Below are positions 3,817-60,533 of a stretch of DNA of 64,000 bases, piece by piece (position 1 is the first letter of the stretch; every line of letters starts with the position of its first letter). The DNA is taken from positions 193,527-257,526 of the forward strand of contig JBDXGW010000001.1 in NCBI GenBank assembly GCA_039989915.1, written 5' to 3'. This stretch comes from Gillisia sp. GTDB lineage: Bacteria; Bacteroidota; Bacteroidia; Flavobacteriales; Flavobacteriaceae. Position numbers and translations under genes: made by a program. The notes under the pieces are model-generated. The model ran no database searches, was not told the DNA's origin, and saw only the letters and a program-made list of their open reading frames with translations.

Positions 3817-5358
3817 CTAAAATCTGTCTACTACCACTTTATAGGTTGGATCTTCCATAATGTTCACCTCTATGATGGCATCGGCATTGCTAAGAAGTTT
3901 CCGGCAATCTGTACTTAGGTGTCTTAAGTGCAGCTTCTTGCCCTGCTTGTGGTATCGTTCAGTGAGTTTGTTTACCGCTTCAATACCGCTCATATCTACG
4001 ATCCTGCTTTCAGAAAAATCTATGATCACTTCTTCAGGATCACCCAACACATCAAATTTATCATTAAATGCCTGAACCGATCCAAAAAAGAGAGGGCCAT
4101 ACATCTCGTAATATTTTCTTCCAAGATCATCCATGCTCTTTCTCGCCCTGATCATTTTAGCATTGTCCCAGGCAAACACCAATGCCGAAATTATTACTCC
4201 TACAAGAACTGCAAGGGCCAGGTTATGAAGGAAAACTGTAATTAGGGTTACAATAACCATCACCAATACGTCGCTTTTTGGCATTCTGCGGAAGGTTCTT
4301 AAGCTCGCCCATTCAAATGTTCCAACGGCTACCATGATCATTACCCCGGTAAGGGCAGCCATAGGGAGTAATTCGATAATATCTGCACCAAACATAATGA
4401 ACACGAGTAAACTTACCGCAGCTACGATCCCCGATAATCTTGCCCGGGCCCCTGAAGAAACGTTGATCAAACTTTGTCCAATCATAGCACAACCCCCCAT
4501 CCCTGAAAAGAATCCGGATAAAACATTGGCGGTTCCCTGGGCCACACATTCTTTATTACTTCTTCCCCTGGTCTCGGTGATCTCATCTACGATGTTCAGG
4601 GTTAATAAACTTTCTATTAATCCAACCCCTGCAACAATTGCAGCGTAAGGAAAAATAAGTGCCAGGGTCTCAAAACTAACGGGGATCACAGGGATATGAA
4701 AAGGTGGAAATCCCCCGTTAATGGAAGCGATATCTCCAACTGTTTTAGTGTCTATTCCCAGGAAAACCACCAGCCCAAACACTACAAGTATAGCCACAAG
4801 AGAGGAGGGGACTACTTTGGTTAATCTTGGGAGCCCCCAGATTATAAGCATAGTGAGAACAACAAGGCCAAGAAGGATATATAGCGAATTCCCTGTCATC
4901 CAGATCATTTCTCCAGCTTCATTTACTGTTTTGAACTGGTCCAGCTGAGACATAAAAATGATGATCGCCAACCCGTTTACAAAGCCAAAGATCACAGAAT
5001 GTGGTACCAGGCGTATTAATTTTCCCAATCTTAAAACCCCTGCAAGAACCTGTATAAGTCCGGCAAGTATTACCGTGGCAAAAATATATTCTACCCCATG
5101 CGATATGGCAAGAGCAGCTATCACAACTGCTACTGCTCCTGTTGCACCGGAGATCATCCCGGGACGGCCTCCAAGGATAGAAGTTACCAACCCCATCACA
5201 AATGCTGCATACAATCCGGTTAACGGCGATAAGCCCGCGATCATTGCAAATGCAACCGCTTCTGGTATCAAAGCCAGGGCAACGGTCAAACCTGCCAGCA
5301 CTTCGGTTTTGTAATTTACTTTTTGTTGAAAATCGAATAAATTGAAAATCTTGTTCAT
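3817..5358 (-). CDS. SulP-family anion (sulfate/bicarbonate) permease with a C-terminal STAS domain
   Basis: Multi-TM body with SulP-like blocks (AGLTVALALIPEAVAFAMIAGLSP, GRSNKECVAQGTANVLSGFFSGMGG). The soluble C-terminus has an anti-sigma-antagonist-like STAS pattern (IIDFSESRIVDMSGIEAV). The start is set at MNKIFNLF (5358) rather than the ORF-track 5412. Confidence 0.9.
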   Translation of the reverse strand: MNKIFNLFDFQQKVNYKTEVLAGLTVALALIPEAVAFAMIAGLSPLTGLYAAFVMGLVTSILGGRPGMISGATGAVAVVIAALAISHGVEYIFATVILAGLIQVLAGVLRLGKLIRLVPHSVIFGFVNGLAIIIFMSQLDQFKTVNEAGEMIWMTGNSLYILLGLVVLTMLIIWGLPRLTKVVPSSLVAILVVFGLVVFLGIDTKTVGDIASINGGFPPFHIPVIPVSFETLALIFPYAAIVAGVGLIESLLTLNIVDEITETRGRSNKECVAQGTANVLSGFFSGMGGCAMIGQSLINVSSGARARLSGIVAAVSLLVFIMFGADIIELLPMAALTGVMIMVAVGTFEWASLRTFRRMPKSDVLVMVIVTLITVFLHNLALAVLVGVIISALVFAWDNAKMIRARKSMDDLGRKYYEMYGPLFFGSVQAFNDKFDVLGDPEEVIIDFSESRIVDMSGIEAVNKLTERYHKQGKKLHLRHLSTDCRKLLSNADAIIEVNIMEDPTYKVVVDRF

Positions 5359-5630
5359 GCAATGCGTATTTGAAATGGAATATATGTTGGAAGAAAAAAG
5401 AACTTCCTGCAATAAAATTATAGGTATGGGGAATTATGAAAGGGGCCGGATAGACCTTATTAGGGCGGAGTAACGGGAGCAGTATATATTTTAGTTACCT
5501 TTTTCATAAGAACCGGCAAAAGTACTGGTTTTTATTAAAAAACCAAGCCTGTTTTACCGCAGTCTTTATCAAGCCGTGCCAAGGTCTCTTATTTATCGCG
5601 TAAATCTTAGGCAGGCCTTTCTAAATGAAA

Positions 5631-6535: not shown

Positions 6536-6925
6536 GGAATAGTGATTGGTGAATAGTGATTAGGAGTTCAAAGTTCAAAGTTTGGAGTTCAAAATTTAAG
6601 GTTTAAAGTTCAAGATTTCCACTATTTCAACCTACAACCTGCCTGCGGTAGGTAGGCCTACAACCTACAACCTACAACTGATAACCAATAACCGAAAACC
6701 GACAACCTGCCTACGGCAGGCAGGCTAACAACCGATAACTCCGCCCAGACTATCCACTTTTCTCTCTCCACTTTCTACTTCGGGTTCAAAGTTCAAGGTT
6801 CCAGGTTAAATTAACTTACAACTGAAAACAGACAACTCACAACCTACAACTGAAAACCTGCCTACGGCAGGCAGGCCCACAACCTACAACCCACAACCCA
6901 CAACTCACAACCCACAACTCACAAC
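6536..6925. repeat. Repeat-only convergent intergenic spacer of tandem 6-9 nt words plus three CCTGCC-N3-GGYAGGYAGG hairpins
   Basis: Runs include gaatagtga, ttcaaag, ctacaacc and c(a/t)cacaac. Hairpins lie at 6638-6656, 6706-6724 and 6857-6875. No ORF is present. Confidence 0.85.
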
Positions 6926-8434
6926 TCACAACTCCAGCAACTCCTCCAAGTAATCCCGCGAATTTGAAAGCCGGGGGATCTTGTGTTGTCCTCCCAGTTT
7001 ATCCTTCTTTTTAAGCCAGTCATAAAATAATCCTTCCCTGGCCTGGTGCAACACCGGCATATTCAGGGTCATATTGTTATAACGCTTGGCCTCATAATCG
7101 CTGTTTATCTCCTGAAGTGCAAGATCCAGTTGCGTGGTAAAGATCTCGAGGTCTTTTGGCGGATTTTTAAATTCAATGATCCATTCATGGGCTCCCTTTT
7201 CTTTGCCTTGCATAAAAACCGGCGCCACCGTATAATCCACAATCTCGCAGTTTGTTACCAGGGAAGCCTTTTTCAAGGCGTTTTCAGCATTTTCAATAAT
7301 TAATTCTTCTCCGAAAACATTAATATGATGTTTGGTGCGGCCCGATACTTTTATCCTGTAAGGTTTTGTTGAGGTAAACCTTACGGTATCCCCAATCCTG
7401 TACCTCCAAAGGCCTGCATTGGTGGTGATAATTATTGCATAATTCACCCCTGTTTTTACCTCAGATAATGGGATAATGGTTTGTTCAGGGCTATTGTACG
7501 TGTCCATAGGGATGAATTCGTAAAAGATCCCGTAATCCAGCATCAACAGCATTTCTTTGGAATCATTCTGGTCCTGGCAGGCAAAAAAACCTTCAGAAGC
7601 ATTGTAGATCTCATAAAATCTAAAATCCTCCTTGGGCAGGATCTTCTGGTATTGAGGGGCGTATGGATCAAAGCTTACCCCACCATGAAAATAAACTTCC
7701 AGGTTGGGCCATACTTCAAATAAATTCTGTTTTTCGGTTGACTCGAGTACATTGTTGAGCAAAACCAGCATCCAGGAAGGAACTCCCGCCAGGCTGGTCA
7801 CTTTTTCCTTTTTGGTCTCATTGACAATTGCCTGCATTTTCACTTCCCAGTCGTGCATAAGCGATACCTCATTGCTGGGGGTACTGCTGAATTCTGCCCA
7901 AAATGGCATATTATCTATCAAAATAGCCGATAGATCGCCATAGGAAGTTCCGTTGTTCTTATAGATCTCCTTACTGCCTCCAAGCCTTAAACTCTTTCCC
8001 GTGAACAATTGCGACTGCGGATTGTTGTTCAAATACATACAAAGAAGATCTTTCCCGGCAGCATAATGACAGGATTCCAGGGAATCGTCACTTACAGGGA
8101 TGAATTTGCTTTTGGCATTGGTGGTGCCGCTGGATTTTGCAAACCATTTAATAGGCGTGGGCCAGAAAATGTTGTTTTCTCCTAACCTGCTGCGCTCAAT
8201 ATTTGCCGTATAATCCTCATAGTCCTGCACGGGCACCCTTTCAGCAAAGGTTTTATAATTCTTTATCCCTGCAAAATCGTATTTCTTTCCTACCTCTGTA
8301 TTTTTTGCCTTGGAAACAAGATTCCTTAAAAGCTCATATTGTACCTCGTGCGGATATTTTATAAAGAGCTCCATTTGGTGGATTCGTTTTTTAAGAAACC
8401 AGGATGCAATGGAGTTTACTAATGGGATTGGCAT
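6926..8434 (-). CDS. GH3-family (auxin-responsive-promoter-like) acyl-adenylate-forming protein
   Basis: 502 aa. The N-terminus (SWFLKKRIHQMELFIKYPHEVQ) and body (FAKSSGTTNAKSKFIP, YNASEGFF) match the bacterial GH3 family pattern. Confidence 0.85.
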   Translation of the reverse strand: MPIPLVNSIASWFLKKRIHQMELFIKYPHEVQYELLRNLVSKAKNTEVGKKYDFAGIKNYKTFAERVPVQDYEDYTANIERSRLGENNIFWPTPIKWFAKSSGTTNAKSKFIPVSDDSLESCHYAAGKDLLCMYLNNNPQSQLFTGKSLRLGGSKEIYKNNGTSYGDLSAILIDNMPFWAEFSSTPSNEVSLMHDWEVKMQAIVNETKKEKVTSLAGVPSWMLVLLNNVLESTEKQNLFEVWPNLEVYFHGGVSFDPYAPQYQKILPKEDFRFYEIYNASEGFFACQDQNDSKEMLLMLDYGIFYEFIPMDTYNSPEQTIIPLSEVKTGVNYAIIITTNAGLWRYRIGDTVRFTSTKPYRIKVSGRTKHHINVFGEELIIENAENALKKASLVTNCEIVDYTVAPVFMQGKEKGAHEWIIEFKNPPKDLEIFTTQLDLALQEINSDYEAKRYNNMTLNMPVLHQAREGLFYDWLKKKDKLGGQHKIPRLSNSRDYLEELLEL

Positions 8435-35338: not shown

Positions 35339-38086
35339 ATGAGGTTTACAATTTTTATAATCCTGCTACTGTTTTCTTTTCTTTCTTTTTCACAGGAAGC
35401 CCTACCTAAAATTTCTGTAAATTTTCAGGATGTCCCCCTTGAAGAGGTTATTGAACAACTTGAAGACAAAAGCAGACTTAAATTTTATTTTATTGAAGAT
35501 TGGTTAGCAGACTATCGTTTTACAGGTGCCTTTGAAAACACCTCTCTGGAAGTAATTTTGGAGGAGATCTTTAAAGAAACCCTTTTGAACTTCTATCGTA
35601 TGGAAGGCAATAAAATTATTCTTACCAGGAACAATGTAATTTATGATCAATTTCCCCGGGATGTCTTTAAAAATCCTGCAGAAAGTACTGTGGAAAGCAG
35701 TGAGGCTCAGCCTGTATTTATAGCTGCAGCGCAAGGGCAAAGCAATATAAAAACCGTTTATATTGGAAAGGAGGATAAAACCAATAAAACCCGAAACTTT
35801 TTACTTAGTGGGTATGCAGTAGAAGCGGAGTCCAACCGTCCGCTTCCCAGTTTAACGGTAATGATCAGGGATAGGAATATTGGAACTGTAACCAACGAGC
35901 AGGGGTACTATGAACTTCTTGTTCCTGTAGGTTCTCACCTTTTGGAAACCAGCTCTCTGGATACCAGGCCTATAAAGGTAAGACTGGTTATTTACAACAA
36001 TGGGGAATTGGATATGCAACTGGAAGAAAATTTTGAGCAATTGGGAGAAATTCTCCTTGCCGCAAAATCCAATCAAAATGTTAGACAAGCCATCACAGGT
36101 CTGGAGCAAATAAATGTAAAGGAGATCAAAACAATTCCCCTGGTCCTGGGTGAACGGGACATTCTAAAAGTGGCTACCACCTTACCCGGGATAAGTACCG
36201 CAGGAGAAGGTGCAGCAGGGTTTAATGTGAGAGGAGGCAGGGCAGATCAAAATTTAATTCTCCTGGATGATGCTGTTTTATATAACCCGGCGCATTTCTT
36301 TGGGATATTTTCAGCTTTAAATCCCTTCACCTCTGGAGAAGTGAACATTTATAAAGGAAGCATTCCTGCGGAGTATGGAGGCAGGCTGTCTTCGGTTTTT
36401 GATATCAAAACCAGGAAAGCAAATACACAAAAATTTGCGGGGGAAGCATCCATTGGTCCTGTGACCAGCAGCCTTGCCCTTGAAATTCCTGTGGTAAAGG
36501 AAAAATCGGCCCTGTTACTGGGAGGAAGAAGTACTTATTCGGACTGGATCCTTCAAAACCTGGATGAGCCCTCCCTCAAAAATACAAGAGCCTCCTTTTA
36601 TGATATCATAGCTAAATATCACCATGTAATAAACGAAAACCATGATGTTGAGGTTACCGGCTATTTTAGCAAAGATGTTTTTAGTATCACCTCAGATTCC
36701 CTGTTTAGTTATGACAACAGGTTGGGATCTTTGCGGTACAACCACAGGTTCAATTCCAAAAACAGGGGAAGTTTGATCGTAAGCAACAGCAATTACAATT
36801 TCAATATAGATTACCAGGGGGGAAATGCAAACGATTTCAAATCTGGTTACCGCATAAGCGAGACAGAAATTAAATACAACCTTAATTACTTATACAGTGA
36901 TAAACACAACTTTAATTATGGGGTGTCCAGTAAACTTTATGTTGTAAAACCGGGAAGAATTGAACCCCTTGGAGAGGAGTCATTGGTAGAGCCCTTAAAC
37001 ATTTCGAGTGAAAAAGGCCTGGAGTCCTCACTGTACGTGGCAGATAATTTTAAGATCAATGAACGCCTGCTTATTACTGCAGGGTTGCGGTTCTCCCTTT
37101 ACAATTCCCTGGGGCCGGGAATACAAAACACTTATGAACAGGGAATTCCAAGAAGTGAATTTACGATAATAGAGGTGGAGGAATTTGGATCTAATGAGGT
37201 AATGCACACCTACGCGGGGCCCGAGATGCGATTTTCTGCCAGGTATTTTCTTGCTCCGGAGCTTTCTTTAAAAGGCAGTTATAATACTACCTACCAGTAC
37301 ATTCACACGCTGTCTAACAACACTACCGTTTCTCCTACAGATACTTATAAATTGAGTGACAACAATATCAAACCCCAAAGTGCCTCCCAGTATACCCTTG
37401 GATTATATAAAAACTTTGGCAATGATATGTACGAGACCAGTGTTGAAGGTTATTATAGAGAATCAAAAGACATCCTGGATTTTAAAGTAGGTGCCCAGCT
37501 CTTTTTAAATGAAAATATTGAAACCGAAGTCCTTCAGGGAGAAGGCGAGGCCTATGGGGTAGAATTCTTAATTAGAAAATCCCTGGGAAATTTAAACGGT
37601 TGGATAGGGTACAGCTATTCCAGATCTTTTTTGAAACTGGATAGTGAATTTAGAGAAGAGCGGGTAAACAACGGGGAATTTTTCCCTGCCAATTTTGACA
37701 AGCCACACGATTTTAGTTTTGTGGGAAATTATAAGTTGACCCAAAGATTTAGTTTGTCGGCCAATTTTGTGTATCAAACAGGGAGGCCCGTGACTTTCCC
37801 CATTGGAAAATACACATTTAATGGGGCAGATTATGTTTTTTACAGTGATCGTAATAAGTTTAGAATTCCGGATTATTACAGGCTGGACGTGAGTTTTAAT
37901 GTGGAAGGGAACCACCGGATCAAAAAATTTGCCCATAGTTTTTGGAATGTTTCAGTTTATAATGTGTTGGGAAGAAACAATCCCTACTCGGTATTCTTTG
38001 TTACCGAAAATGGCGAGGTGAAGGCATACCAAAGCTCAATTTTCTCTATACCCATTCCCACCATTACATATAATTTCAGATTTTAA
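35339..38086 (+). CDS. TonB-dependent receptor-like outer-membrane protein (STN, CarboxypepD_reg, plug and barrel domains)
   Basis: STN-like N-terminus (ISVNFQDVPLEEVIEQLEDKSRLKFYF). CarboxypepD_reg segment (LSGYAVEAESNRPLPSLTVMI...TNEQGYYEL). Plug (LPGISTAGEGAAGFNVRGGRADQNLILLDDAVLYNP). C-terminal aromatic barrel end ...ITYNFRF. Confidence 0.9.
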   Translation: MRFTIFIILLLFSFLSFSQEALPKISVNFQDVPLEEVIEQLEDKSRLKFYFIEDWLADYRFTGAFENTSLEVILEEIFKETLLNFYRMEGNKIILTRNNVIYDQFPRDVFKNPAESTVESSEAQPVFIAAAQGQSNIKTVYIGKEDKTNKTRNFLLSGYAVEAESNRPLPSLTVMIRDRNIGTVTNEQGYYELLVPVGSHLLETSSLDTRPIKVRLVIYNNGELDMQLEENFEQLGEILLAAKSNQNVRQAITGLEQINVKEIKTIPLVLGERDILKVATTLPGISTAGEGAAGFNVRGGRADQNLILLDDAVLYNPAHFFGIFSALNPFTSGEVNIYKGSIPAEYGGRLSSVFDIKTRKANTQKFAGEASIGPVTSSLALEIPVVKEKSALLLGGRSTYSDWILQNLDEPSLKNTRASFYDIIAKYHHVINENHDVEVTGYFSKDVFSITSDSLFSYDNRLGSLRYNHRFNSKNRGSLIVSNSNYNFNIDYQGGNANDFKSGYRISETEIKYNLNYLYSDKHNFNYGVSSKLYVVKPGRIEPLGEESLVEPLNISSEKGLESSLYVADNFKINERLLITAGLRFSLYNSLGPGIQNTYEQGIPRSEFTIIEVEEFGSNEVMHTYAGPEMRFSARYFLAPELSLKGSYNTTYQYIHTLSNNTTVSPTDTYKLSDNNIKPQSASQYTLGLYKNFGNDMYETSVEGYYRESKDILDFKVGAQLFLNENIETEVLQGEGEAYGVEFLIRKSLGNLNGWIGYSYSRSFLKLDSEFREERVNNGEFFPANFDKPHDFSFVGNYKLTQRFSLSANFVYQTGRPVTFPIGKYTFNGADYVFYSDRNKFRIPDYYRLDVSFNVEGNHRIKKFAHSFWNVSVYNVLGRNNPYSVFFVTENGEVKAYQSSIFSIPIPTITYNFRF

Positions 38087-50991: not shown

Positions 50992-51237
50992 TTAATTTAG
51001 GTCATTATTTACTTCTTCACCATTCACATCATCTGTATTGTTGATCTCCTCTTTTACTTCTCTCGAAACTTTCTTAGCCCCTTCTTCAATTTTTTTACCG
51101 GCTTTTTTAGTGTTTTCCTCAATGTCTTCACCAATTGCTTCTACAGCTTCCTTGGTTTTTTCCTGAGTGGTTTCACGACAGGAGTAAAATGATGTAGCCA
51201 TCCCGGCAAGCATCAGCATTAAAAATAACTTTTTCAT
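50992..51237 (-). CDS. Small charged lipoprotein, SCRET-family paralog P1 (81 aa)
   Basis: Signal peptide plus lipobox SFYSC followed by RETTQEK. The mature part is K/E-rich with an acidic tail NTDDVNGEEVNNDLN. It has its own terminator. Confidence 0.7.
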   Translation of the reverse strand: MKKLFLMLMLAGMATSFYSCRETTQEKTKEAVEAIGEDIEENTKKAGKKIEEGAKKVSREVKEEINNTDDVNGEEVNNDLN

Positions 51238-51404: not shown

Positions 51405-51426
51405 CTAAAAAGATTAGTAATGAAGA

Positions 51427-51642
51427 CTATTGCATGTCGTCATCAGCATTCATATCGTCAGTTCCGTCAATTTCTTCCTGAACTTCAGTTTCTGCTTCTT
51501 CGTAAGTTTCTTCAGTAGTAGTTTCGATGTCGTTTCCTACTTCTTCGAAAGCATCTTCAGTTTTTTCTTCAGTAGTCTCTCTACAAGAGTAGATAGATAA
51601 TGTGAAAACTGAAGCTAATAAAATAAGGGATAATTTTTTCAT
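51427..51642 (-). CDS. Small highly acidic lipoprotein, SCRET-family paralog P2 (71 aa)
   Basis: Lipobox SIYSC followed by RETTEEK. By hand count the mature 51 aa hold 23 D/E and only 2 basic residues. Confidence 0.7.
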   Translation of the reverse strand: MKKLSLILLASVFTLSIYSCRETTEEKTEDAFEEVGNDIETTTEETYEEAETEVQEEIDGTDDMNADDDMQ

Positions 51643-51670: not shown

Positions 51671-51678
51671 CAAATTTA
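51671..51678 (-). promoter_or_regulatory. Candidate -7 box (TAAATTTG on the minus strand) for paralog P2
   Basis: TAnnTTTG match 29 nt upstream of the P2 ATG, in the 45-nt gap after the DUF4130 gene. Confidence 0.35.
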
Positions 51679-51687
51679 AACTATTTT

Positions 51688-52470
51688 TTAATTATGCAAA
51701 GAACTCTTTTCAGTTAAATATTTCCAGTATCTTTTTGGCACATGTTGCTTGTGTAATTTCAGGTTTTTACGAGATTTAATATTTGTGCTTTTAAAATATT
51801 GTTGCCATAATTCCTTAAATTGAATCTCGGACACACTATAAATGCTGGATTGATAGTTTTTTTCAAAAACCCGTGTAGCAATATCCAGACTTATATAATT
51901 GGTTTCCTGCAGGTTATAAAACAACCCGAATTTTCGCTTCAAATCATAAATTATCCACTTTTGGTCAGCATACCGGCTTTCAAAATGCGGCAAAATAAGC
52001 GGGAGAACGTTAAAGTCGGGTTCAATATGAGCAAAGTAGATTTCATCTTTGGTAAGCATGAATCTCACAAATGCCTCCATCCTGTGTTTTTCCCTGCTCA
52101 CCATTTTTGAGGTTTGAGAAATCCTCAGAATTACAGGGTTCCCATAATCTCCTGTACTAAAATTATTAGTGTTAAAAACTAATTGTATGTACTGTAGTAA
52201 CTGGAGTTCTATACCCGGCAATTCGCTTAAAAAAGAAAAATATAATTGCCGCCTGCCACCACTGTCCAATTTGGTCTTCAGGGCTTGCTTTACCCGGGAA
52301 GCTTTTTTGAGATCTGTAATAACAGGCTCGGGGAGGGAGAAAAAATCCTGCTGAATATTGTCCTCTGTATAAATTGCAGTCACGTTAAGTTTCTGTTCGA
52401 ATGTTTGGAATACACAGGTTAAAAACCCTTCAAAGCTGCCATCATAGGCCAATATACTGTCTTTTTTCAT
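51688..52470 (-). CDS. TIGR03915/DUF4130-like putative DNA-metabolism protein (partner of the radical-SAM protein)
   Basis: N-terminus ILAYDGSFEGFLTCVF matches the family pattern. Its ATG overlaps the radical-SAM stop (TAATG). Confidence 0.8.
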   Translation of the reverse strand: MKKDSILAYDGSFEGFLTCVFQTFEQKLNVTAIYTEDNIQQDFFSLPEPVITDLKKASRVKQALKTKLDSGGRRQLYFSFLSELPGIELQLLQYIQLVFNTNNFSTGDYGNPVILRISQTSKMVSREKHRMEAFVRFMLTKDEIYFAHIEPDFNVLPLILPHFESRYADQKWIIYDLKRKFGLFYNLQETNYISLDIATRVFEKNYQSSIYSVSEIQFKELWQQYFKSTNIKSRKNLKLHKQHVPKRYWKYLTEKSSLHN

Positions 52471-53732
52471 TAGCTAAAGAGCATTAACTGGGTTCCATGG
52501 TCTTTTCGAAACTTTCCGCTCGAGTTCTGTAGGATCATTCCTTTAAGTCGCTCGCTGGAAAGTTCTCTTTTTTCCCAATGCGAGGAATCACAGGTTATAA
52601 AGTATTTTGCACGGTTAAGTGCCACCCCAATTTTCGCAAGGTGTTCCCAGTTGAGTTTTCTAAATCTTCTTGCCTGAATGATCTTGTGAACCGATTTCAT
52701 TCCTATTCCGGGAATTCTTGCCAGCAACCTTTTCTCGGCCCGGTTTATATCCAACGGGAAGAGATCCCTGTTGCGCAAAGCCCAGCTAAGTTTTGGATCT
52801 ACATCCAGGTCAAGGTTTGGATGCTGCTCATTTAATAGCTCCCTGATGTCAAAGCCGTAAAAACGCAGCAGCCAGTCTGTTTGATACAGGCGGTTTTCCC
52901 TGAGTAGTGGTACAGGGCTTCCCAGGGCCGGAAGTCGGGAATCATCTACCACGGGAATATATCCCGAATAATACACCCTTTTCATTTCGTATTTTTTATA
53001 GTAATAAGCGGCAGAGTACATTACATCCCGGTCGGTCTCGCCGGTGGCACCCACGATCATTTGTGTGCTTTGCCCTGCCGGTGCATATTTGGGAGTGCTC
53101 TTTATTATTTTTCGCTCGCTTTGATATTGGGTGATCCCTTCTTTCACCGCCTGCATAGGTTTTATGAAATCCTCATACTTCTTATCGGGCGCGAGGAGTT
53201 TTAATCCTGAAATGGTAGGGATCTCAATATTTACTGAAAGCCTGTCTGCATACAAACCCGCCTCCAGCATGAGTTCGTCGCTGGCCCCGGGAATTGATTT
53301 TAAATGAATATATCCGTTGAAGTTTTCTTCCAGCCTTAGCTTTTTGGCCACTGCCACCAGGCGTTCCATGGTGTGATCTGCACTTTTGAAGATCCCGGAG
53401 CTTAGGAACAATCCTTCTATATAATTACGCCGGTAAAAATTCATGGTGAGATCTACCACTTCCTGCACCTTAAAGGCAGCGCGTTTTATGTCATTGCTTT
53501 TTCGGGTCACACAATAGGCGCAATCAAAAATGCAGTGATTGGTAAGCAGGATCTTTAACAGGGAGACACATCTTCCATCTTCGGTATAGCTGTGGCATAT
53601 GCCTACACCATCGCTATTGCCCAGGCCTTTGTTCTTATTGGCTCTTTTGCTGCCGCTGCTGGAGCAGGAGATATCATACTTTGCAGCATCGGCCAAAATA
53701 TCCAGTTTTTCCTTTATTCGTTCAAATGACAT
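52470..53732 (-). CDS. TIGR03916-like putative DNA modification/repair radical-SAM protein
   Basis: N-terminal AAKYDISCSSSG block. CxxxCxxC cluster motif CIFDCAYC. C-terminal helix-hairpin-helix LLARIPGIGMKSVHKII. The start overlaps the dnaE2 3' end by 11 nt. Confidence 0.85.
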   Translation of the reverse strand: MSFERIKEKLDILADAAKYDISCSSSGSKRANKNKGLGNSDGVGICHSYTEDGRCVSLLKILLTNHCIFDCAYCVTRKSNDIKRAAFKVQEVVDLTMNFYRRNYIEGLFLSSGIFKSADHTMERLVAVAKKLRLEENFNGYIHLKSIPGASDELMLEAGLYADRLSVNIEIPTISGLKLLAPDKKYEDFIKPMQAVKEGITQYQSERKIIKSTPKYAPAGQSTQMIVGATGETDRDVMYSAAYYYKKYEMKRVYYSGYIPVVDDSRLPALGSPVPLLRENRLYQTDWLLRFYGFDIRELLNEQHPNLDLDVDPKLSWALRNRDLFPLDINRAEKRLLARIPGIGMKSVHKIIQARRFRKLNWEHLAKIGVALNRAKYFITCDSSHWEKRELSSERLKGMILQNSSGKFRKDHGTQLMLFS

Positions 53733-56700
53733 GTGGGTCTTGATTTTCTGTTCTTATTTCTTTTCGTTCCCCTATTTTTTTGATCTTTTCCAGTCTTTGC
53801 GCGGTAACAGGGTTCTCTTCTGAAAAACGGGGGTCTGTGATATATGCTTCCTTGCGCATTTTGTGTACTTCAAGGCTCAATACTTCAAATTCCTCACTTA
53901 CTTTCCCATAGAGGGCATATATTCCCAGGCCGTGAAAACTGTATTGTTGTGCCACGGGCGGGAAAAGTACCGCGTCAAAGAAATATCCCGCACGGTCCAG
54001 GAACGTTCCAAAATACATTACCTCCCCTTTAAAGGTTTTAGTGTATTTTATTGTTACCAGGTAGCCGTAGATAAGGATATTCCTGTTGATGAAAGCTTTA
54101 AAATCCTTTTCGCAATAGCGGGTCCTGGGTTCTTCCTTCAGTAGATCAAAATGGCTGCACAGGGGAAATCCCAGCAATTCAATTTGTTCAAAGGCAGCTT
54201 CCAGCCGGGTGGTGTGAAGATCGGGCAGGGAAAACTTTTTGTGCGTTGGCATGAACAGGGGCAGTTGCTCGGGTTTTCGGGGCGTTTTAGAAAGCTTGAA
54301 ATGGGCGTCCCACAACAGTTTGAATTTATCTATCCCCGTAAACCTAAAGGCATTGATCCTTATAAGAATGCTCAATTGTTCAATTCCAATGGATACCCGG
54401 TCTATGAAATTTTCAAAAGAGGTGAACTTTCCGTGAAAATTCCTGTTTTCAATAATTCGCTGTGCTGCCCGTTGCTCGAGTTCCTTTAAATTTCCAAATC
54501 CCAGATACAGGTGTTTCCCTTTGATGGTGTTATGAAAATCGCCCTCATTAATACAGGGCGGTTCTATAATGGCACCACACATTTTTGCCTCGTGCACATA
54601 AAGTTCGGGGGTATAGAATCCGCCACCGTTATTAAGCACGGCAACCATATATTCCAGGGGGAAATAAGTTTTGAGAAAGAGGCTCTGGTAACTCTCGGCC
54701 GCATAACTGGCAGAGTGGCCTTTTGCAAAGGTGTAGCCTGCAAAGCTCTTTATCTGCTCCCATACTTCAAAGATCATTTTCTCTTCAATATTTCTTTCGC
54801 GGCAGTTGGCAATGAATTTTTCCTCCACTTTTAGAAATTCAGCCCGGGAGCGAAATTTCCCGCTCATCCCTCGCCGCAATACATCGGCTTCGGCCAGGCT
54901 AAGTCCCGCAAAGAAATGGGCTACCTTGATCACATCTTCCTGGTACACCATGATCCCATAGGTATCTGGCATGATCTTTTCCAGTTCAGGATGGGCGAGC
55001 TTGCGGCGGGAAGGATCCCGATGGCGCATTATATATTCCCGCATCATTCCGCTTTTGGAAACGCCGGGCCGTATAATAGAACTGGCAGCTACAAGCCCCA
55101 GGTAGGTATCGGTTTTAAGTTTCCTCAACAGGTTTCTCATTCCCGGAGATTCTATATAGAAACATCCCATACAATTCCCTTCTTTGATAAGGTTATTGAT
55201 TTTAGGATCCTTCTTGAATTTCTTCAGGTCATGAATATCAAAAGGGGGTGCCTCGGGTTGATTTTCAGCAATTATGTCCAGGGTGTCCTTGATCTTTCCG
55301 AGTCCGCGTTGGGCAAGAATGTCAAATTTATAGAGCCCCACATCCTCGGCTATGATCATATCAAACTGTACCGTAGGGAAACCTTTGGGCGGCAGGTCCA
55401 GGGCAGAGAAGCAGGTGAGGGGTTTGGAGGAGATAAGAATACCTCCCGCGTGGATGCTGCGGTAATTGGGCATTCCCTCTATGAGTTTGCCGTATTTAAG
55501 CACGGTCCTGTGAATGGCATCCATATAATTCCCCGGCGCGCGGCCTTCACATAATAGATCTATGTCCTCTTTGGGCAATCCAAACACTTTTCCCAACTCG
55601 CGTATTACGGCACGGTATTGAAAGGTGTTATAAGTAGCCAGCAGGGCGGTGTGTTCAAACTCTTCAAAGATGAACCGGGTCATATCCTCGCGATCCTGCC
55701 AGGAGAAATCTATATCAAAGTCGGGCGGACTCGTACGAAACTCGTTTATAAATCGCTCAAAATAAAGGTCAAGTTCTATGGGGTCAACCTCGGTGATCTG
55801 GAGTAAATGAGCTACAATACTGTTGGCACCGCTGCCGCGGCCCACGTAGAAATAGCCTTTCTCCCGGGCATACCCGCAAATACGCCAGTTGATGAGAAAA
55901 TAAGACACAAAATTGAGTTTTTTTATCACCTTTAATTCTGTTGCTACCCGCTCGAGGATCTCTGGAGTTGGGTTGGGATATCTAAGGTTGATGCCTTCCC
56001 GGCAAAGTTCTTCCAGCAGTTTTTCATCTTCTTCCCTGCTGCCTTTGTATACCTGTTGATTCTGCGGTACCCTGGCTGCTGAAAAGTCAAAGTGAATGCT
56101 GCACTGGTCCAGAAGGTTGCGGGTATTATCAAGGATAAATGCAAAATCCCTGAATCTTTCTTCCAGTATTTCCTGCGGAAGCATTTTTTCATCTGTTCCC
56201 GCCTCTTCTTCGGGGGGGAGTTTACTAAGCAGGCAGTTGTTATCTATGGCTCGCAGAAGGCGGTGGGCATTGAAATCGCGTTTGTTCCTCACCGTAACCG
56301 GTTGTAGTACTACCAGCCGGGAGGTCATTTCCCTAAGTTTGGAAAAGCGCAGTTTTCGCAGTTCATTTATAGAAACCCCAATAAATTCATGGGGCAGGAA
56401 CCGGGTGGTTTCTGCAGCCATGATTTTTTCAAACGGGTAGATCACAAAAGCATTTTTAAAGGAGGGCGCTTTTTCAGGGATCATCAGTTTTTCCTGAAGA
56501 TGGCGTGATAAATACGCGTTTATTTCCTCAAAACCTTCATTGTTTTTTGCCAGCGCCACAAATTGTTGCTGTGCCCCGTTGCGAAAGTCAATTCCCAATA
56601 CCGGGGTGATCCCATACTCGGGAGCTTTTCTCACAAAATTCAGGCAGGCCGAGGTGTTGTTAATGTCGGTAAGGGCCAGTTTTTTCACCTGGTTTTCCCG

Positions 56701-56775
56701 CGCCAGTTCCAGCAATTCAATTTCTGAAAAGGTGCCAAAGCGCATGCTGTAATATGTATGGGTGTTCAGGTACAC
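53722..56775 (-). CDS. dnaE2: Error-prone DNA polymerase III alpha-subunit paralog (DnaE2-type)
   Basis: 1017 aa. N-terminal PHP domain (YLNTHTYYSMRFG) and pol III alpha core blocks (HAGGILIS, DFDIDFS, KFDILAQRGL). It sits downstream of a Y-family polymerase and opposite a LexA-like gene. GTG start. Confidence 0.9.
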   Translation of the reverse strand: MYLNTHTYYSMRFGTFSEIELLELARENQVKKLALTDINNTSACLNFVRKAPEYGITPVLGIDFRNGAQQQFVALAKNNEGFEEINAYLSRHLQEKLMIPEKAPSFKNAFVIYPFEKIMAAETTRFLPHEFIGVSINELRKLRFSKLREMTSRLVVLQPVTVRNKRDFNAHRLLRAIDNNCLLSKLPPEEEAGTDEKMLPQEILEERFRDFAFILDNTRNLLDQCSIHFDFSAARVPQNQQVYKGSREEDEKLLEELCREGINLRYPNPTPEILERVATELKVIKKLNFVSYFLINWRICGYAREKGYFYVGRGSGANSIVAHLLQITEVDPIELDLYFERFINEFRTSPPDFDIDFSWQDREDMTRFIFEEFEHTALLATYNTFQYRAVIRELGKVFGLPKEDIDLLCEGRAPGNYMDAIHRTVLKYGKLIEGMPNYRSIHAGGILISSKPLTCFSALDLPPKGFPTVQFDMIIAEDVGLYKFDILAQRGLGKIKDTLDIIAENQPEAPPFDIHDLKKFKKDPKINNLIKEGNCMGCFYIESPGMRNLLRKLKTDTYLGLVAASSIIRPGVSKSGMMREYIMRHRDPSRRKLAHPELEKIMPDTYGIMVYQEDVIKVAHFFAGLSLAEADVLRRGMSGKFRSRAEFLKVEEKFIANCRERNIEEKMIFEVWEQIKSFAGYTFAKGHSASYAAESYQSLFLKTYFPLEYMVAVLNNGGGFYTPELYVHEAKMCGAIIEPPCINEGDFHNTIKGKHLYLGFGNLKELEQRAAQRIIENRNFHGKFTSFENFIDRVSIGIEQLSILIRINAFRFTGIDKFKLLWDAHFKLSKTPRKPEQLPLFMPTHKKFSLPDLHTTRLEAAFEQIELLGFPLCSHFDLLKEEPRTRYCEKDFKAFINRNILIYGYLVTIKYTKTFKGEVMYFGTFLDRAGYFFDAVLFPPVAQQYSFHGLGIYALYGKVSEEFEVLSLEVHKMRKEAYITDPRFSEENPVTAQRLEKIKKIGERKEIRTENQDPHVI

Positions 56776-57033
56776 GGGGTTTAGTAGTTAGTTCTTAGTT
56801 CTTAGTAGTTAGAAGGATCTCTTGAGGCGCTTACTCCTGAGACGCTTACTCCTGAGACGCGAAGCATCTTTTGTGGCGTAAGGCATTACGCCTTTACTTT
56901 TTTTCTGAGACGCGAAGCATCTCTTGAGAGGCACAAGCATTGCGCCTTTACTTTCTTTTCCTGAGACACGAAGCATCGCGTCTTTACTCTCTTTTCCTCT
57001 TTGTCTTTTTTTCTCTTTCCCTCCCGTAGGGCC
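56776..57033. repeat. Intercistronic spacer of tandem degenerate units of about 45 bp, each with a stem-loop
   Basis: Hairpins at 56882-56899 (ggcgtaa/ttacgcc), 56937-56953 (ggcaca/tgcgcc) and 56965-56982 (gacacg/cgcgtc). Each is followed by tttact(y)t plus a pyrimidine run. Direct repeats cttactcctgagacg x2 and (t)tagt(t)agtt words are also present. Confidence 0.8.
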
Positions 57034-58248
57034 TTACTGCTTCCTGTGCGCCAGCACCACCGGTGGCTCCCCGTTAAAAGGATTGGTCATTCTTCCTATG
57101 GTCTTTGCGCCCAGAGAGGCGGCTCGCAACACACTGCGGTCGCCGTAACGGTTTCGTATCTTATCCATCGCATTGTATAATTGAAGTACTTCTTCATTGT
57201 CATCAAATAGATTTATCTGGTAATTCCCGCCGGCGAGGTGGCTAAAGCGTATGCCTATGAGCCTTACCAGCAGCCTGCGGTTGTAGAGTTTTTTAAAGAT
57301 CTCCTGGATCTTGGGGATGAGGATATGGTCGGCACTGGTGTACGGGATCTTGAGTTGCCGGGTATAGGTGTTGAAATCTGAATACCTGATCTTTACCGCG
57401 ATACAGGAGGTGAGTTTGTCTCCCCGGCGCAGCTGGTAAGCCAGATTCTCTGTCATGGCCAGCAGGATAGCCTGCAGTCTTGCCACATCAATAGTATCGC
57501 GGTCAAAAGTGCGCTCGGTAGAAATAGATTTTCGTTCAGAATAGGGGATCACCGGGGTGTTATCTACTCCCTGTGCGCGGTGCCAGATGGTGGTGCCGTT
57601 GCTGCCCAGCACCTTTTGCATCATTTCCAGCGGCATTTCCTGGATGGTCTTAATTTGTCTCACGCCCAGGTTGCGCAGGGTCTGGTAGGTTTTATCGCCT
57701 ACCATGGGGATCTTTCTTACAGATAGCGGCGCCAGGAATTCCTTCTCAAATCCTGAATCAATTTTTAACTGATTGTTGGGCTTAGCCTCATTGGTGGCTA
57801 CTTTGGATACTATTTTGTTTACTGAAAGTCCAAAGGAAATAGGCAGCCCGGTTTCCCGAATGATCCTTTTACGAAGTTCAGAAGCGTATTTATAGCAGCC
57901 AAAAAAGCGGTCCATCCCTGTAAGATCGGCATAGAATTCATCAATGCTGGATTTTTCAAAGAGGGGAACATCTGCCCGGATGATATCTGTGACATCTTTG
58001 GAATATTTGGTATATGTCCCCGCGTCGCCACGAATCACTGTAGCTTCGGGACAAAGCTGCCGCGCCAGTTTCATGGACATACCGGAGTGTACTCCAAAGG
58101 CCCGGGTCTCATAGCTGCACGCCGCAACCACCCCACGGTCGCTGATCCCGCCCACCAGTAACGGCCGGTGTAAAAGCCGGCTATCCAGCAGCCGTTCTAC
58201 AGAGACGTAGAAGGTATCAAGATCAAGATGTAATACTGTTTTTATCAT
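57034..58248 (-). CDS. Y-family DNA polymerase (DinB/ImuB-like) with intact catalytic residues
   Basis: HLDLDTFYVSVE and SIDEFYADLT align to the DinB catalytic D/D/E. Little-finger region present. The start is set at MIKTVLHLD (58248). Confidence 0.9.
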   Translation of the reverse strand: MIKTVLHLDLDTFYVSVERLLDSRLLHRPLLVGGISDRGVVAACSYETRAFGVHSGMSMKLARQLCPEATVIRGDAGTYTKYSKDVTDIIRADVPLFEKSSIDEFYADLTGMDRFFGCYKYASELRKRIIRETGLPISFGLSVNKIVSKVATNEAKPNNQLKIDSGFEKEFLAPLSVRKIPMVGDKTYQTLRNLGVRQIKTIQEMPLEMMQKVLGSNGTTIWHRAQGVDNTPVIPYSERKSISTERTFDRDTIDVARLQAILLAMTENLAYQLRRGDKLTSCIAVKIRYSDFNTYTRQLKIPYTSADHILIPKIQEIFKKLYNRRLLVRLIGIRFSHLAGGNYQINLFDDNEEVLQLYNAMDKIRNRYGDRSVLRAASLGAKTIGRMTNPFNGEPPVVLAHRKQ

Positions 58249-58266
58249 AATGTTCGCTGCGCTCAC

Positions 58267-58735
58267 GTTTGTAGTTTAGAGTTTATGGTTTAAAAAAGTA
58301 GTGAGTAGTGAGTGGGGAGTAGTGATTAGTGATCAGTCATTAATTCGCTTCGCTCACGTTCGGGGTTCAGGGTTTAGTTCAGGGTTAGTTTGTACTAATT
58401 ATCAACCTACACCTGACAACTCACAACTCACAATCCATAACTCCTAACTCATTTTTTAGTGATTAGGGAATAGTGAGTAGTGAGTGGTGAATAGTGAGTA
58501 GTGAGTGGTGAATAGTAAATAGTGAGTAGTGAGATATGAGAAAACTCCTTTATCCATTTACCTTTCCGCTTTTCCTCTTTGACTTTTTAACTCTTCCAAT
58601 CCACTTTCCACTCTTTTCCTCTTTAACTCTTTTCCTATTTATCTTTTTTAACCTACAACCTTACAACCTTACAACCTTACAACCCCTAACTTCTAACTTC
58701 TAACTTCTAACTCCTAACTCAACTTGGAATCTTTA
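58267..58735. repeat. Simple-repeat mosaic upstream of the polymerase operon
   Basis: C-free blocks at 58267-58333 and 58451-58544 ((a)gtgagt/gaatagtga words). G-free block at 58582-58725 (ccactttcc, ccttacaa x3, taacttc x3). No ORF. Confidence 0.85.
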
Positions 58736-58798
58736 CAAAATTATGGAATTATTCCATTAAATAGGAAATAATCCAATGTTAAAGTTGGACTTATTCCA
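58736..58798. promoter_or_regulatory. Candidate divergent promoter/operator of the LexA-like repressor
   Basis: Perfect 7-1-7 palindrome ATGGAATTATTCCAT (58743-58757). Two related sites follow: GGAAATAATCC (58764-58774) and TGGACTTATTCCA (58786-58798). A minus-strand TAATTTTG -7 box (58736-58743) abuts the palindrome. Confidence 0.4.
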
Positions 58799-58817
58799 AA
58801 AAAAATTATATTTGTGT

Positions 58818-59585
58818 ATGGGAACAGATGTAACAATAGAGGTTAAGCGATTTAAGGAAATTCGCGATGACCATAATTTCACCCAATCGGAATTTGCAGA
58901 GGTGTTGGGAATCAAGAATTCCACTGCCGATATTGAGCGGGGTCGCACCAAATTATCGGGTAAGATCGTAGCAGAACTCTTGCGGCAATTTGGGGTAAAT
59001 CCCCTTTGGTTGTTTGGAGACAGCAGCCAGAAATACCTCCCGGTGAACAAGGGGGATGTAAGTCCAAAAGTGGTGACCGTAAACAGCGGGGAAGAGGAGA
59101 ATATAGTTCTTGTAAATCAAAAAGCTGCTGCAGGTTATCCCTCCAATGTTCAGGATGTGGAATGGTACCAGCAACTGCCGGCATTTGATATACCGCTACC
59201 CGAATACCGCAATGCCACTTACCGTGGGTTTCAGGTAGAAGGAGATAGTATGATGCCCAATTTAAGACCGGGAGAGTGGGTCTTGGGAAAAGCGGTGCCC
59301 AGTATTGCAGAAGTAAGCTACAGCAAGATCTATGTGGTGGTATTGTATGATTCGGTTCTGGTCAAGAAGATCCAGAAAATGGAAGATCCCTATAAGATCC
59401 TTCTGGTTTCCATCAATGAAGAATATCCACCTGTACAGGTTCTGGTAAGTGAGATCCAGGAATTATGGCAGGTGAACAGCAAGCTCACTTTCAGTATTGA
59501 CGCAACTTCAGAAAACGGATTGCTGCGGCAGTTGCAACAGTCTATGGAAGAATTGAAAAGCGAGTTCAAAACCTTAAAGCACTAA
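58818..59585 (+). CDS. Non-canonical LexA-like repressor (XRE-type HTH plus S24 autopeptidase)
   Basis: HTH FTQSEFAEVLGIKNSTADIERGRTKLS. Cleavage-site-like KAAAGYP (compare LexA VAAGEP). Ser nucleophile in EGDSMMP. Lys in VLVKKIQ. It is divergent from the polymerase operon. The start is set at MGTDV (58818); TTG 58776 is also possible. Confidence 0.85.
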   Translation: MGTDVTIEVKRFKEIRDDHNFTQSEFAEVLGIKNSTADIERGRTKLSGKIVAELLRQFGVNPLWLFGDSSQKYLPVNKGDVSPKVVTVNSGEEENIVLVNQKAAAGYPSNVQDVEWYQQLPAFDIPLPEYRNATYRGFQVEGDSMMPNLRPGEWVLGKAVPSIAEVSYSKIYVVVLYDSVLVKKIQKMEDPYKILLVSINEEYPPVQVLVSEIQELWQVNSKLTFSIDATSENGLLRQLQQSMEELKSEFKTLKH

Positions 59586-59868: not shown

Positions 59869-60114
59869 TTAAAGATCGTCGTTACCTTCAATCTCATCTT
59901 CCACATCCTGTGCAGCACGCTCAACAGCATTTCCTGCATCATCGGCGGCTCTTTCAACGTCGTTACCTACATCATCCAGGTCATCAACGTCATCAAGATC
60001 ATCCATGTCGTCATTTACTTCTATTTCATTTTTTTCTTCAGTTGTTTCTCTACAAGAAGTGAAAAATGCACTGAAAGTAAAAGCAGTCGCTAATATTAAA
60101 ATTGACTTTTTCAT
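59869..60114 (-). CDS. Small highly acidic lipoprotein, SCRET-family paralog P4 (81 aa)
   Basis: Lipobox FFTSC followed by RETTEEK. Internal repeats DDLDDV x2 and GN(D/A)VERAA x2. By hand count about 27 of 60 mature residues are D/E. Confidence 0.7.
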   Translation of the reverse strand: MKKSILILATAFTFSAFFTSCRETTEEKNEIEVNDDMDDLDDVDDLDDVGNDVERAADDAGNAVERAAQDVEDEIEGNDDL

Positions 60115-60181: not shown

Positions 60182-60418
60182 CTAGTTATCGTCAATATCA
60201 TCTATTTTACGATCAATTTCTCTATTGATCTTGTCATCCACTTTTTTGGCACTTCTCTCGAAAACGCCTTCCCGCTCTTCAACTTTCACCTCAACCGGCT
60301 GGGTTCTTTCCACTTCAACTTCTCTTATTACCGTTTCCTTTTCAGCAGTTTCCCTGCAGGAAATTAAAGTTGTAGCCGATGCAAGAATTATTGCAGTACT
60401 TAAAATAATTCGTTTCAT
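60182..60418 (-). CDS. Small charged lipoprotein, SCRET-family paralog P5 (78 aa)
   Basis: Lipobox TLISC followed by RETAEKE. The mature part is E/V/R/K-rich with an acidic tail KIDDIDDN. The start is set at MKRIIL (60418). Confidence 0.7.
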   Translation of the reverse strand: MKRIILSTAIILASATTLISCRETAEKETVIREVEVERTQPVEVKVEEREGVFERSAKKVDDKINREIDRKIDDIDDN

Positions 60419-60533
60419 ATTATATATGATTAAATTTCTCTTGGTCGAAATTACCACATAAATTATTCGAGCACTCTTGTTTTTGGTAAATTTTAATATA
60501 AATTAAAAGAAATTTTAGCTTTTGCGAGGAAAT

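Follow-up and report, generated by a model that had tools for sequence, protein, structure and literature searches.

The window analysed here, i.e. a stretch of 64,000 nt from Gillisia sp. (GCA_039989915.1, contig JBDXGW010000001.1, positions 193,527-257,526 of the forward strand), contains a gene for a non-canonical LexA repressor that is divergent from a string of four minus-strand genes, which code for a Y-family polymerase (PolY), an accessory C-family polymerase (a DnaE paralog), a radical-SAM protein of the TIGR03916 family (rSAM) and its TIGR03915/DUF4130 partner (Table 1). The four genes probably constitute one LexA-repressed SOS operon, which would have arisen, before the Gillisia/Antarcticibacterium clade diversified, by fusion of two independently SOS-regulated units: the translesion module of Bacteroidetes, which would consist of DnaE2B and an active PolY, and the widespread rSAM-DUF4130 pair. 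The join would then mean shared regulation, not an obligatory partnership of the pair with the polymerases. A preceding sequence-only reading of the region had located the five genes and their junctions correctly, and the families it named scored strongly in our searches; only the start of the repressor gene had to be moved. It had also proposed that the pair cooperates with translesion synthesis, and this found no comparative support: outside the clade the rSAM pair was in an operon with a polymerase in none of 87 loci (83 from Bacteroidota and Moraxellaceae and 4 from proteobacterial plasmids), and in Croceivirga lutea both units are present, at separate loci.

The loci were collected by a genome scan with a nine-sequence alignment, which gave 80 species-level loci from Bacteroidota and Moraxellaceae with rSAM identities of 55-80%; targeted look-ups and the four annotated plasmid loci were added to them. 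The DUF4130 gene directly followed the rSAM gene in 77 of 82 loci and a divergent LexA-like gene lay just upstream of rSAM in 16 of the 82, among which no other recurrent functional neighbour of the pair was found. Two polymerase neighbours were discarded: the one in L079 is the replicative DnaE1 (1273 bits) and was considered incidental, and the one in L046 belongs to a umuDC operon on the opposite strand, at a distance of 3.6 kb. The pair and the polymerases share an operon in five loci, i.e. those of the window, Antarcticibacterium arcticum, Gillisia sp. M10.2A and two metagenome contigs. Because all five have identical flanking genes, they were counted as one evolutionary event, and the fused operon is probably limited to the Gillisia/Antarcticibacterium clade. 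Orthologs of the two polymerases are found alone, as two-gene operons behind two or three GGA-N5-TCC boxes, in Croceivirga, Flagellimonas and Leptobacterium. The window repressor shares 62-65% identity with rSAM-associated repressors versus 55% with the polymerase-associated one, a hint of an insertion by which the two polymerase genes came to lie between the lexA promoter and the rSAM pair.

Outside the clade, the rSAM pair stands alone, usually directly behind predicted LexA boxes of its own. In the range from -300 to +10 of the rSAM start, at least two GGA-N5-TCC boxes were found in 12 loci, at the conserved positions -80, -57 and -39 (background 0.22 sites/kb), and a CTAA-N5-TTAG box in 14 loci (background 0.03 sites/kb). 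All three alphaproteobacterial plasmid loci carry a GAAC-N7-GAAC box at -17 to -39, and the Caballeronia plasmid locus carries a perfect CTGTATAAATATACAG (CTGT-N8-ACAG) at -29. Judged from these sites, the pair has retained SOS control with four unrelated operators across Bacteroidota, Alphaproteobacteria and Betaproteobacteria. This agrees with the study of Sanchez-Osuna et al. (Nucleic Acids Research 2021, PMC8565304), in which the COG1573-COG4277 operon is described as SOS-regulated in Bacteroidetes and earlier reports of its SOS regulation in Verrucomicrobia and Alphaproteobacteria are cited. DUF4130 had been put into an SOS/ImuB-C gene-neighbourhood network by Aravind's group in 2013 (PMC3765255). 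Both units and their SOS control have thus been described before, and the association is not new in kind; together with the structural model of the pair published in 2026 (see below), this overturns the suggestion that the locus represents an undescribed system.

In the plasmid loci, the partner of rSAM is a 480-492-aa DUF4130-UdgX fusion with scores for both TIGR03915 and TIGR03914. The UdgX-type domain, a C-terminal uracil-DNA glycosylase domain similar to family 4, is absent from the DUF4130 protein of the window, as it is from all 77 partner-bearing loci sampled in Bacteroidota and Moraxellaceae; the fusion was found, for instance, in L090 and L093. The window pair resembles other TIGR03916/TIGR03915(/TIGR03914) pairs in scores far above the cutoffs, in the adjacency and overlap of the genes, as in 77 of 82 sampled loci, and in its predicted LexA control, which is shared with other phyla; it differs from them in that it has no promoter of its own.

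A few further observations concern the surroundings of the pair. A gene for a uvrA-like protein (~945-955 aa) directly follows rSAM-DUF4130 on the same strand in L002 (12265-15105), L084 (10182-13013) and L085 (10329-13199); these loci are from Zobellia, Pseudozobellia and Pricia, and a homologous gene is located farther downstream in Flagellimonas and others, which makes 8 loci in all. In the Hymenobacter loci L048, L049, L054 and L057, a gene for a protein of ~300 aa, alpha/beta hydrolase-like by eye, lies between rSAM and DUF4130. In Acinetobacter, Psychrobacter, Moraxella and Brachymonas (L040-L044, L047, L050, L051, L055 and L060, and plasmid hit H1), rSAM shows 59-64% identity to the flavobacterial protein. 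These sequences are thus no more distant from it than those of Hymenobacter or Chitinophagaceae, and the gene may have been transferred between phyla.

The repressor matched the Pfam families HTH_3 (E = 7.6e-9) and Peptidase_S24 (E = 3.8e-11). It combines a CI-like helix-turn-helix domain with an S24 domain that contains an Ala104-Gly105 cleavage site and a Ser/Lys dyad, formed by Ser144 of the GDSM motif and the lysine of the VKK motif at 182-184. Its start codon is most likely the ATG at 58818 (255 aa), not the one at 58776, because the third LexA box falls within the longer open reading frame (ORF) and the shorter product matches its A. arcticum ortholog with 100% identity along all 255 aa. 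The repressor of contig L086 is 100% identical as well, and the neighbouring operon proteins show 79-96% identity only. According to PMC8565304, Bacteroidetes use CI-like S24 repressors as LexA, as shown by electrophoretic mobility shift assays (EMSA) and reverse transcription-quantitative PCR, and their LexA operators are either GGA-N5-TCC, a motif validated by EMSA, or CTAA-N5-TTAG.

Three GGA-N5-TCC boxes were found within a 53-nt stretch of the divergent promoter, i.e. both in the repressor's own promoter and before the SOS genes. If the 27 sites of the 64-kb window were uniformly placed, 3 of them would cluster within 60 nt with a probability of P = 0.007. The array recurs with its spacing of 23/19 nt in L001, L083 and L086, and is also present before rSAM or PolY in other genera. 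The layout of the boxes followed by TAATTTTG, a Bacteroidetes-type -7 element and one of three such minus-strand elements in 51.6-58.8 kb, is identical in L001, L083, L086 and L085, while L084 has TATTTTTG instead. The pattern of three boxes followed by TA..TTTG precedes the operon in A. arcticum, Gillisia and one metagenome contig, rSAM in Zobellia, Pseudozobellia and Pricia, and PolY in Leptobacterium. With an S24 repressor that has a predicted cleavage site and three boxes of a validated type, the SOS-type character assigned to the locus from the outset is borne out. Further GGA-N5-TCC sites whose spacers are AT-only, at 37675, 45037 and 52954, were taken as chance matches, being located within genes. 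The window has 3 CTAA-N5-TTAG sites (1.0 expected); those at 51405-51417 and 52157-52169, near or inside the DUF4130 gene, are probably due to chance as well.

The locus shares with the GGA-N5-TCC SOS regulon of PMC8565304 the repressor of the HTH_3 and S24 type, the multi-copy operator and the presence of boxes before the repressor's own gene. The GGA network of that study already includes DinB-PolIII-alpha operons and the COG1573-COG4277 (uracil-DNA glycosylase/radical-SAM) operon. Unlike in the regulon, two target operons appear to be merged in the window into a four-gene transcript divergent from lexA, and a long leader of simple repeats precedes the first gene. A merged operon is not mentioned in the passages of PMC8565304 that were consulted.

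A single damage-inducible transcript is the best reading of the four genes, and the rSAM pair is very probably part of it, because the genes overlap and no internal promoter or terminator was found; the gene order is also conserved in the five fused loci. The start of rSAM overlaps the end of dnaE by 11 nt, and the ATG of the DUF4130 gene overlaps the rSAM stop codon by 1 nt (ATGA at 52470). No minus-strand -7 element was found between 55323 and 51671, no LexA box upstream of rSAM in the window, and no minus-strand terminator-like site in the operon gaps; terminator-like matches amounted to 14, with 9.8 expected by chance. An internal promoter or terminator that would uncouple the pair had been named by the sequence-only reading as a finding that would speak against it, and none was detected in the sequence upstream of rSAM.

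Two parts of the predicted transcript consist of repeats. The ORF for PolY can start at 58266 (410 aa) or at the ATG at 58248 (404 aa); its orthologs were all called with 404 aa, and the leader was delimited accordingly. In A. arcticum, the equivalent of the leader is composed of ~250 nt of similar repeats, and in Gillisia L083 it is 113 nt long and contains no such repeats. The gap between PolY and DnaE is 258 nt in the window versus 36 nt in L083. No credible ORF was found in the 258-nt gap, and a hidden small gene was rejected since the ORFs there are solely repeat-derived. The repeat leader looks like an expandable spacer, and the short leader and gap of L083 indicate that the repeats are dispensable. 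Intergenic tandem repeats of 7-8 nt are present at 58267-58735, 56776-57033 and 6563-6941 of the window and at 5330-5560 and 6800-6950 of L001, with units such as TAGTGAG, AACCTTAC, CTAACTT and CCCACAA, and one repeat-filled spacer separates convergent genes. A. arcticum has repeats of the same kind and of other sequence at equivalent places, and the spacers of Gillisia L083 are short and repeat-free.

The polymerase genes had been described as a lexA/imuB/dnaE2 cassette, and this label is incorrect. In the Y-family protein, the catalytic DxD and SIDE motifs are intact, and it scored as Pol IV (261.4 bits against NF002677, cutoff 256); its best match in the PDB is Pol IV 7yll (E = 1.4e-57, 375 residues), to which the catalytic residues were aligned as DLD and SIDE. 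A QINLF clamp-type motif is present in its sequence. The DnaE paralog passed only the superfamily model TIGR00594 and was below the cutoffs for DnaE1 and the canonical error-prone DnaE2 (424 bits for the latter, cutoff 939). No ImuA-like ORF was found in or between the window operon genes, and PolY gave no match to the ImuB-C domain. The locus is similar to the ImuA-ImuB-DnaE2 cassette in being a predicted SOS-controlled operon with a Y-family protein and an accessory C-family polymerase, but with an intact PolY, no ImuA and a low DnaE2 score, it lacks both the dead ImuB with an ImuB-C domain and the RecA-like ImuA of that cassette, which was ruled out.

The two polymerases match the published DnaE2B-active PolY module of Bacteroidetes, as judged by sequence comparison. 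A 2026 polymerase survey (PMC12926913) describes the DnaE2B group in genomes without ImuA or ImuB and with diverse partners. In common with the DnaE2B-PolY-RecA module of that survey, the window has an accessory DnaE of ~1000 aa directly downstream of a catalytically intact Y-family polymerase, with neither ImuA nor ImuB nearby. The same arrangement was found in the orthologous operons, where DnaE orthologs of ~1000 aa are always downstream of a 404-aa PolY. In the C-terminus of PolY, where the module has a RecA-NT motif, residues ~355-380 aligned with RecA residues 10-29 in the expected register, but the match was not significant (E = 0.33). Unlike the published module, that of the window clade has rSAM and DUF4130 appended.

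The rSAM protein scored 664.1 bits against TIGR03916 (cutoff 343.5). The two motifs noted previously in rSAM were confirmed: the CxxxCxxC motif corresponds to C67/C71/C74, conserved in 30 of 31 diverse homologs, and the C-terminal helix-hairpin-helix (HhH) region matched RuvA (E = 3.7e-4). The DUF4130 protein scored 261.9 bits against TIGR03915 (cutoff 112.25), over profile positions 1-243, and matched PF13566 (E = 4.6e-51). Pairing of the two families is evident from the overlapping genes, the adjacency in 77 of 82 loci and the natural rSAM-DUF4130 fusion proteins of 666-729 aa (P0124-P0127 set). Another protein, P0127 (582 aa), has an rSAM domain with Peptidase_M16_C and is either a real chimera or a gene-calling artefact. 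A second, N-terminal cysteine triad, C23/C46/C55, is invariant in all 83 aligned rSAM copies from Bacteroidota and Moraxellaceae, and in the wider rSAM family three cysteines were found at these positions in 7 of 31 diverse sequences; the triad could be a subfamily-specific site for an auxiliary metal or cluster.

No solved structure was found among the homologs of rSAM or the DUF4130 protein. The AlphaFold2 model of rSAM (mean predicted local distance difference test score, pLDDT, 85.6) matched in Foldseek generic radical-SAM barrels only (HydE, ThiH, PFL-AE, LipA, viperin and BioB); spore photoproduct lyase was absent from the top 50 structural matches, and no lyase sequence was matched in the PDB. 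The older "SplB-like" label of the family is unsupported, because the fold matches are generic barrels, and a likeness to spore photoproduct lyase beyond the radical-SAM core was not found; identification of rSAM as an SplB-like photolyase was rejected on the grounds of both the sequence and the fold searches. What the window enzyme would share with SplB (COG1533) is the type of enzyme, a radical-SAM protein acting on DNA, and SOS regulation in several phyla, whereas spore photoproduct lyase lacks an HhH tail, and a DUF4130 partner is not obligatory for it. The DUF4130 model (pLDDT 81), built on a comparatively shallow alignment of database hits, is weakly DHH/RecJ-like, with PAP phosphatase (E = 1.5e-3) followed by RecJ2, Cdc45 and RecJ among its matches. 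This agrees with a 2026 preprint (bioRxiv 10.64898/2026.08.19.745780), which presents a confident AlphaFold 3 (AF3) model of the rSAM/DUF4130 heterodimer, with the catalytic residues of DHH proteins missing. In that model, DUF4130 is at the place of the substrate-recognition domain of MiaB, and a single-stranded nucleic acid is favoured as the substrate. The adjacency, the natural fusions and the AF3 complex together argue that the pair is a physical unit.

As the sequence-only reading stated, no chemistry has been demonstrated for the TIGR03915/TIGR03916 pair, and we found no literature on TIGR03916 or on UdgX together with radical SAM. UdgX excises uracil and then remains covalently bound at the abasic site (PMC4787834, PMC10359453); a radical-SAM neighbour is unmentioned in the UdgX papers that were consulted. 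Because the partners in Proteobacteria are DUF4130-UdgX fusions, the pair may be linked to damaged pyrimidines. Our best guess, which is inferred only, is a damage-induced, DNA-directed radical enzyme to which DUF4130 presents a damaged, probably pyrimidine-derived nucleotide.

To summarize the mechanism that we propose, the CI-like S24 repressor would bind as dimers to the three GGA-N5-TCC boxes, which overlap the predicted divergent promoters of the repressor gene and the operon. By analogy with the respective families, DNA damage would lead to RecA-stimulated self-cleavage at Ala104-Gly105, and derepression would give one long mRNA with a ~480-nt repeat leader, encoding PolY, DnaE2B, rSAM and DUF4130, in which the last three genes would be translationally coupled. 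The polymerases would bypass lesions. Separately, the rSAM/DUF4130 heterodimer would grip DNA via the HhH and a degenerate DHH/RecJ-like nucleotide cleft, and its 5'-deoxyadenosyl radical would serve in the repair or processing of a damaged nucleotide, probably one derived from a pyrimidine or from uracil.

Several points weigh against the proposal of a fusion of two units under shared SOS control. It is possible that polymerase linkage recurs in unsampled phyla beyond the 87 loci, and the fusion has persisted in a clade whose DnaE proteins are 74-96% identical, which may point to a selective advantage. Transcription as an operon is predicted here from the sequence, a non-consensus promoter may exist within dnaE, and the leader and the repeat spacer could hold attenuation signals. 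The chemistry of the pair is entirely conjectural, with the fold search returning generic radical-SAM cores. As an alternative, rSAM and DUF4130 might be functionally coupled to the polymerases, as accessories of a DnaE2B-PolY mutasome that pre-process a blocking lesion or DNA-protein adduct and replace factors of the ImuA/ImuB type. The tight operon with the dnaE/rSAM overlap, kept in five diverged loci, the lack of ImuA/ImuB and the diversity of partners in DnaE2B systems (PMC12926913), and the place of DUF4130 in the SOS/ImuB-C network (PMC3765255) are consistent with such a role, as is the growth defect of Escherichia coli without dinB or umuDC upon co-expression of Mycobacterium smegmatis UdgX with Ugi (PMC4787834). 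We nevertheless consider it unlikely, given the lack of operonic linkage in all 87 loci outside the clade, the single event behind the five fused loci, the orthologous PolY-DnaE operons that stand alone as two-gene units, and the fact that radical SAM is unmentioned in the 2026 polymerase survey (PMC12926913). A bolder version, in which the heterodimer would represent a novel type of DNA repair enzyme induced by damage and at the same time a clade-specific working accessory of the mutasome without ImuA/ImuB, appears similarly improbable; its radical chemistry would be directed at a replication-blocking uracil- or pyrimidine-derived lesion or at an abasic-site or UdgX-type DNA adduct.

An enzyme that modifies DNA or RNA instead of repairing it, for example by stress-induced radical methylation, thiolation or base hypermodification, would be in keeping with the generic radical-SAM cores among the nearest structures (HydE, LipA, BioB, MiaB and viperin) to the exclusion of spore photoproduct lyase, with the MiaB-like position of DUF4130 and the preference for single-stranded nucleic acid (bioRxiv 10.64898/2026.08.19.745780), and with the cysteine triad, a possible site for an auxiliary cluster of the kind seen in enzymes that insert sulfur. 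The triad, however, is not conserved across the wider family, the persistence of LexA control with four or more unrelated operators argues for damage handling, the proteobacterial partner carries a fused UdgX-type domain that binds uracil-DNA, and uvrA-like and umuDC genes are near the pair in some loci, so that we regard modification as quite unlikely. Least likely of all, and in our opinion very improbable, is that the pair is transcribed mainly from an unrecognised promoter in the 3' end of dnaE and that the operon reflects gene packing. The pair does have its own promoter in other genera, and a weak terminator-like hairpin at 54002-53986 inside dnaE and the site at 52954 inside rSAM could be seen in this light, but the 11-nt overlap, the absence of a minus-strand -7 element and of a LexA box upstream of rSAM, and the near-chance number of terminator-like matches speak against it. 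We therefore prefer the fusion of two independently regulated SOS units.

Taken alone, the operon fusion is a minor evolutionary observation. The point of interest that remains is the chemistry of the pair, for which the window supplies a convenient natural context: TIGR03916/TIGR03915(-UdgX) is among the most persistently LexA-controlled gene pairs without a known reaction, and UdgX is a genomics reagent whose physiological role and covalent-adduct resolution are still open (PMC10359453). The Gillisia/Antarcticibacterium clade offers a natural construct that combines a single promoter and repressor with two polymerases and the rSAM pair, suited to epistasis tests. If the pair were a new class of repair enzyme that serves the mutasome in this clade, lesion processing and error-prone bypass would be made in fixed proportion from one mRNA.

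Table 1. Features of the predicted SOS locus (positions in the window)
Feature	Position	Strand	Remarks
Non-canonical LexA repressor gene	58818..59585	+	HTH_3 and Peptidase_S24, CI-like; ORF call begins at 58776
Three GGA-N5-TCC LexA boxes	58745..58797	unstranded	58745-58755 GGAATTATTCC, 58764-58774 GGAAATAATCC, 58787-58797 GGACTTATTCC
Bacteroidetes-type -7 element TAATTTTG of the four-gene operon (predicted)	58736..58743	-	Adjoins box 1
5' leader, ~470-490 nt, with 7-8-nt tandem repeats (predicted)	58249..58735	-	
Y-family polymerase (Pol IV/DinB-like PolY), 404 aa from ATG 58248	57034..58248	-	IMS, IMS_C
Tandem-repeat spacer between PolY and DnaE, non-coding	56776..57033	-	
Accessory C-family polymerase (DnaE paralog, DnaE2B-type), 1017 aa	53722..56775	-	PHP, DNA_pol3_alpha, finger, HHH_6
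TIGR03916 radical-SAM protein (rSAM), 420 aa	52470..53732	-	Radical_SAM and C-terminal helix-hairpin-helix (HHH_3)
TIGR03915/DUF4130 partner, 260 aa	51688..52470	-	Stand-alone, no UdgX domain

The G+C content of the polymerase and rSAM genes is 42-48%, compared with 33-38% in the DUF4130 gene and the flanking regions (52000-58500 versus flanks), and this contrast across the operon may mean that the fused parts differ in their history. On both sides of the operon, four paralogous small ORFs (71-91 aa) are located on the minus strand, at 50992-51237, 51427-51642, 59869-60114 and 60182-60457. None of them matched a Pfam family. Each codes for a signal peptide, a lipobox-like cysteine and a very acidic tail, and small ORFs of similar size are found at the same positions in L001, L083, L086 and L094. 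The small gene starting at 51642 has its own -7 element, TAAATTTG, at 51671.

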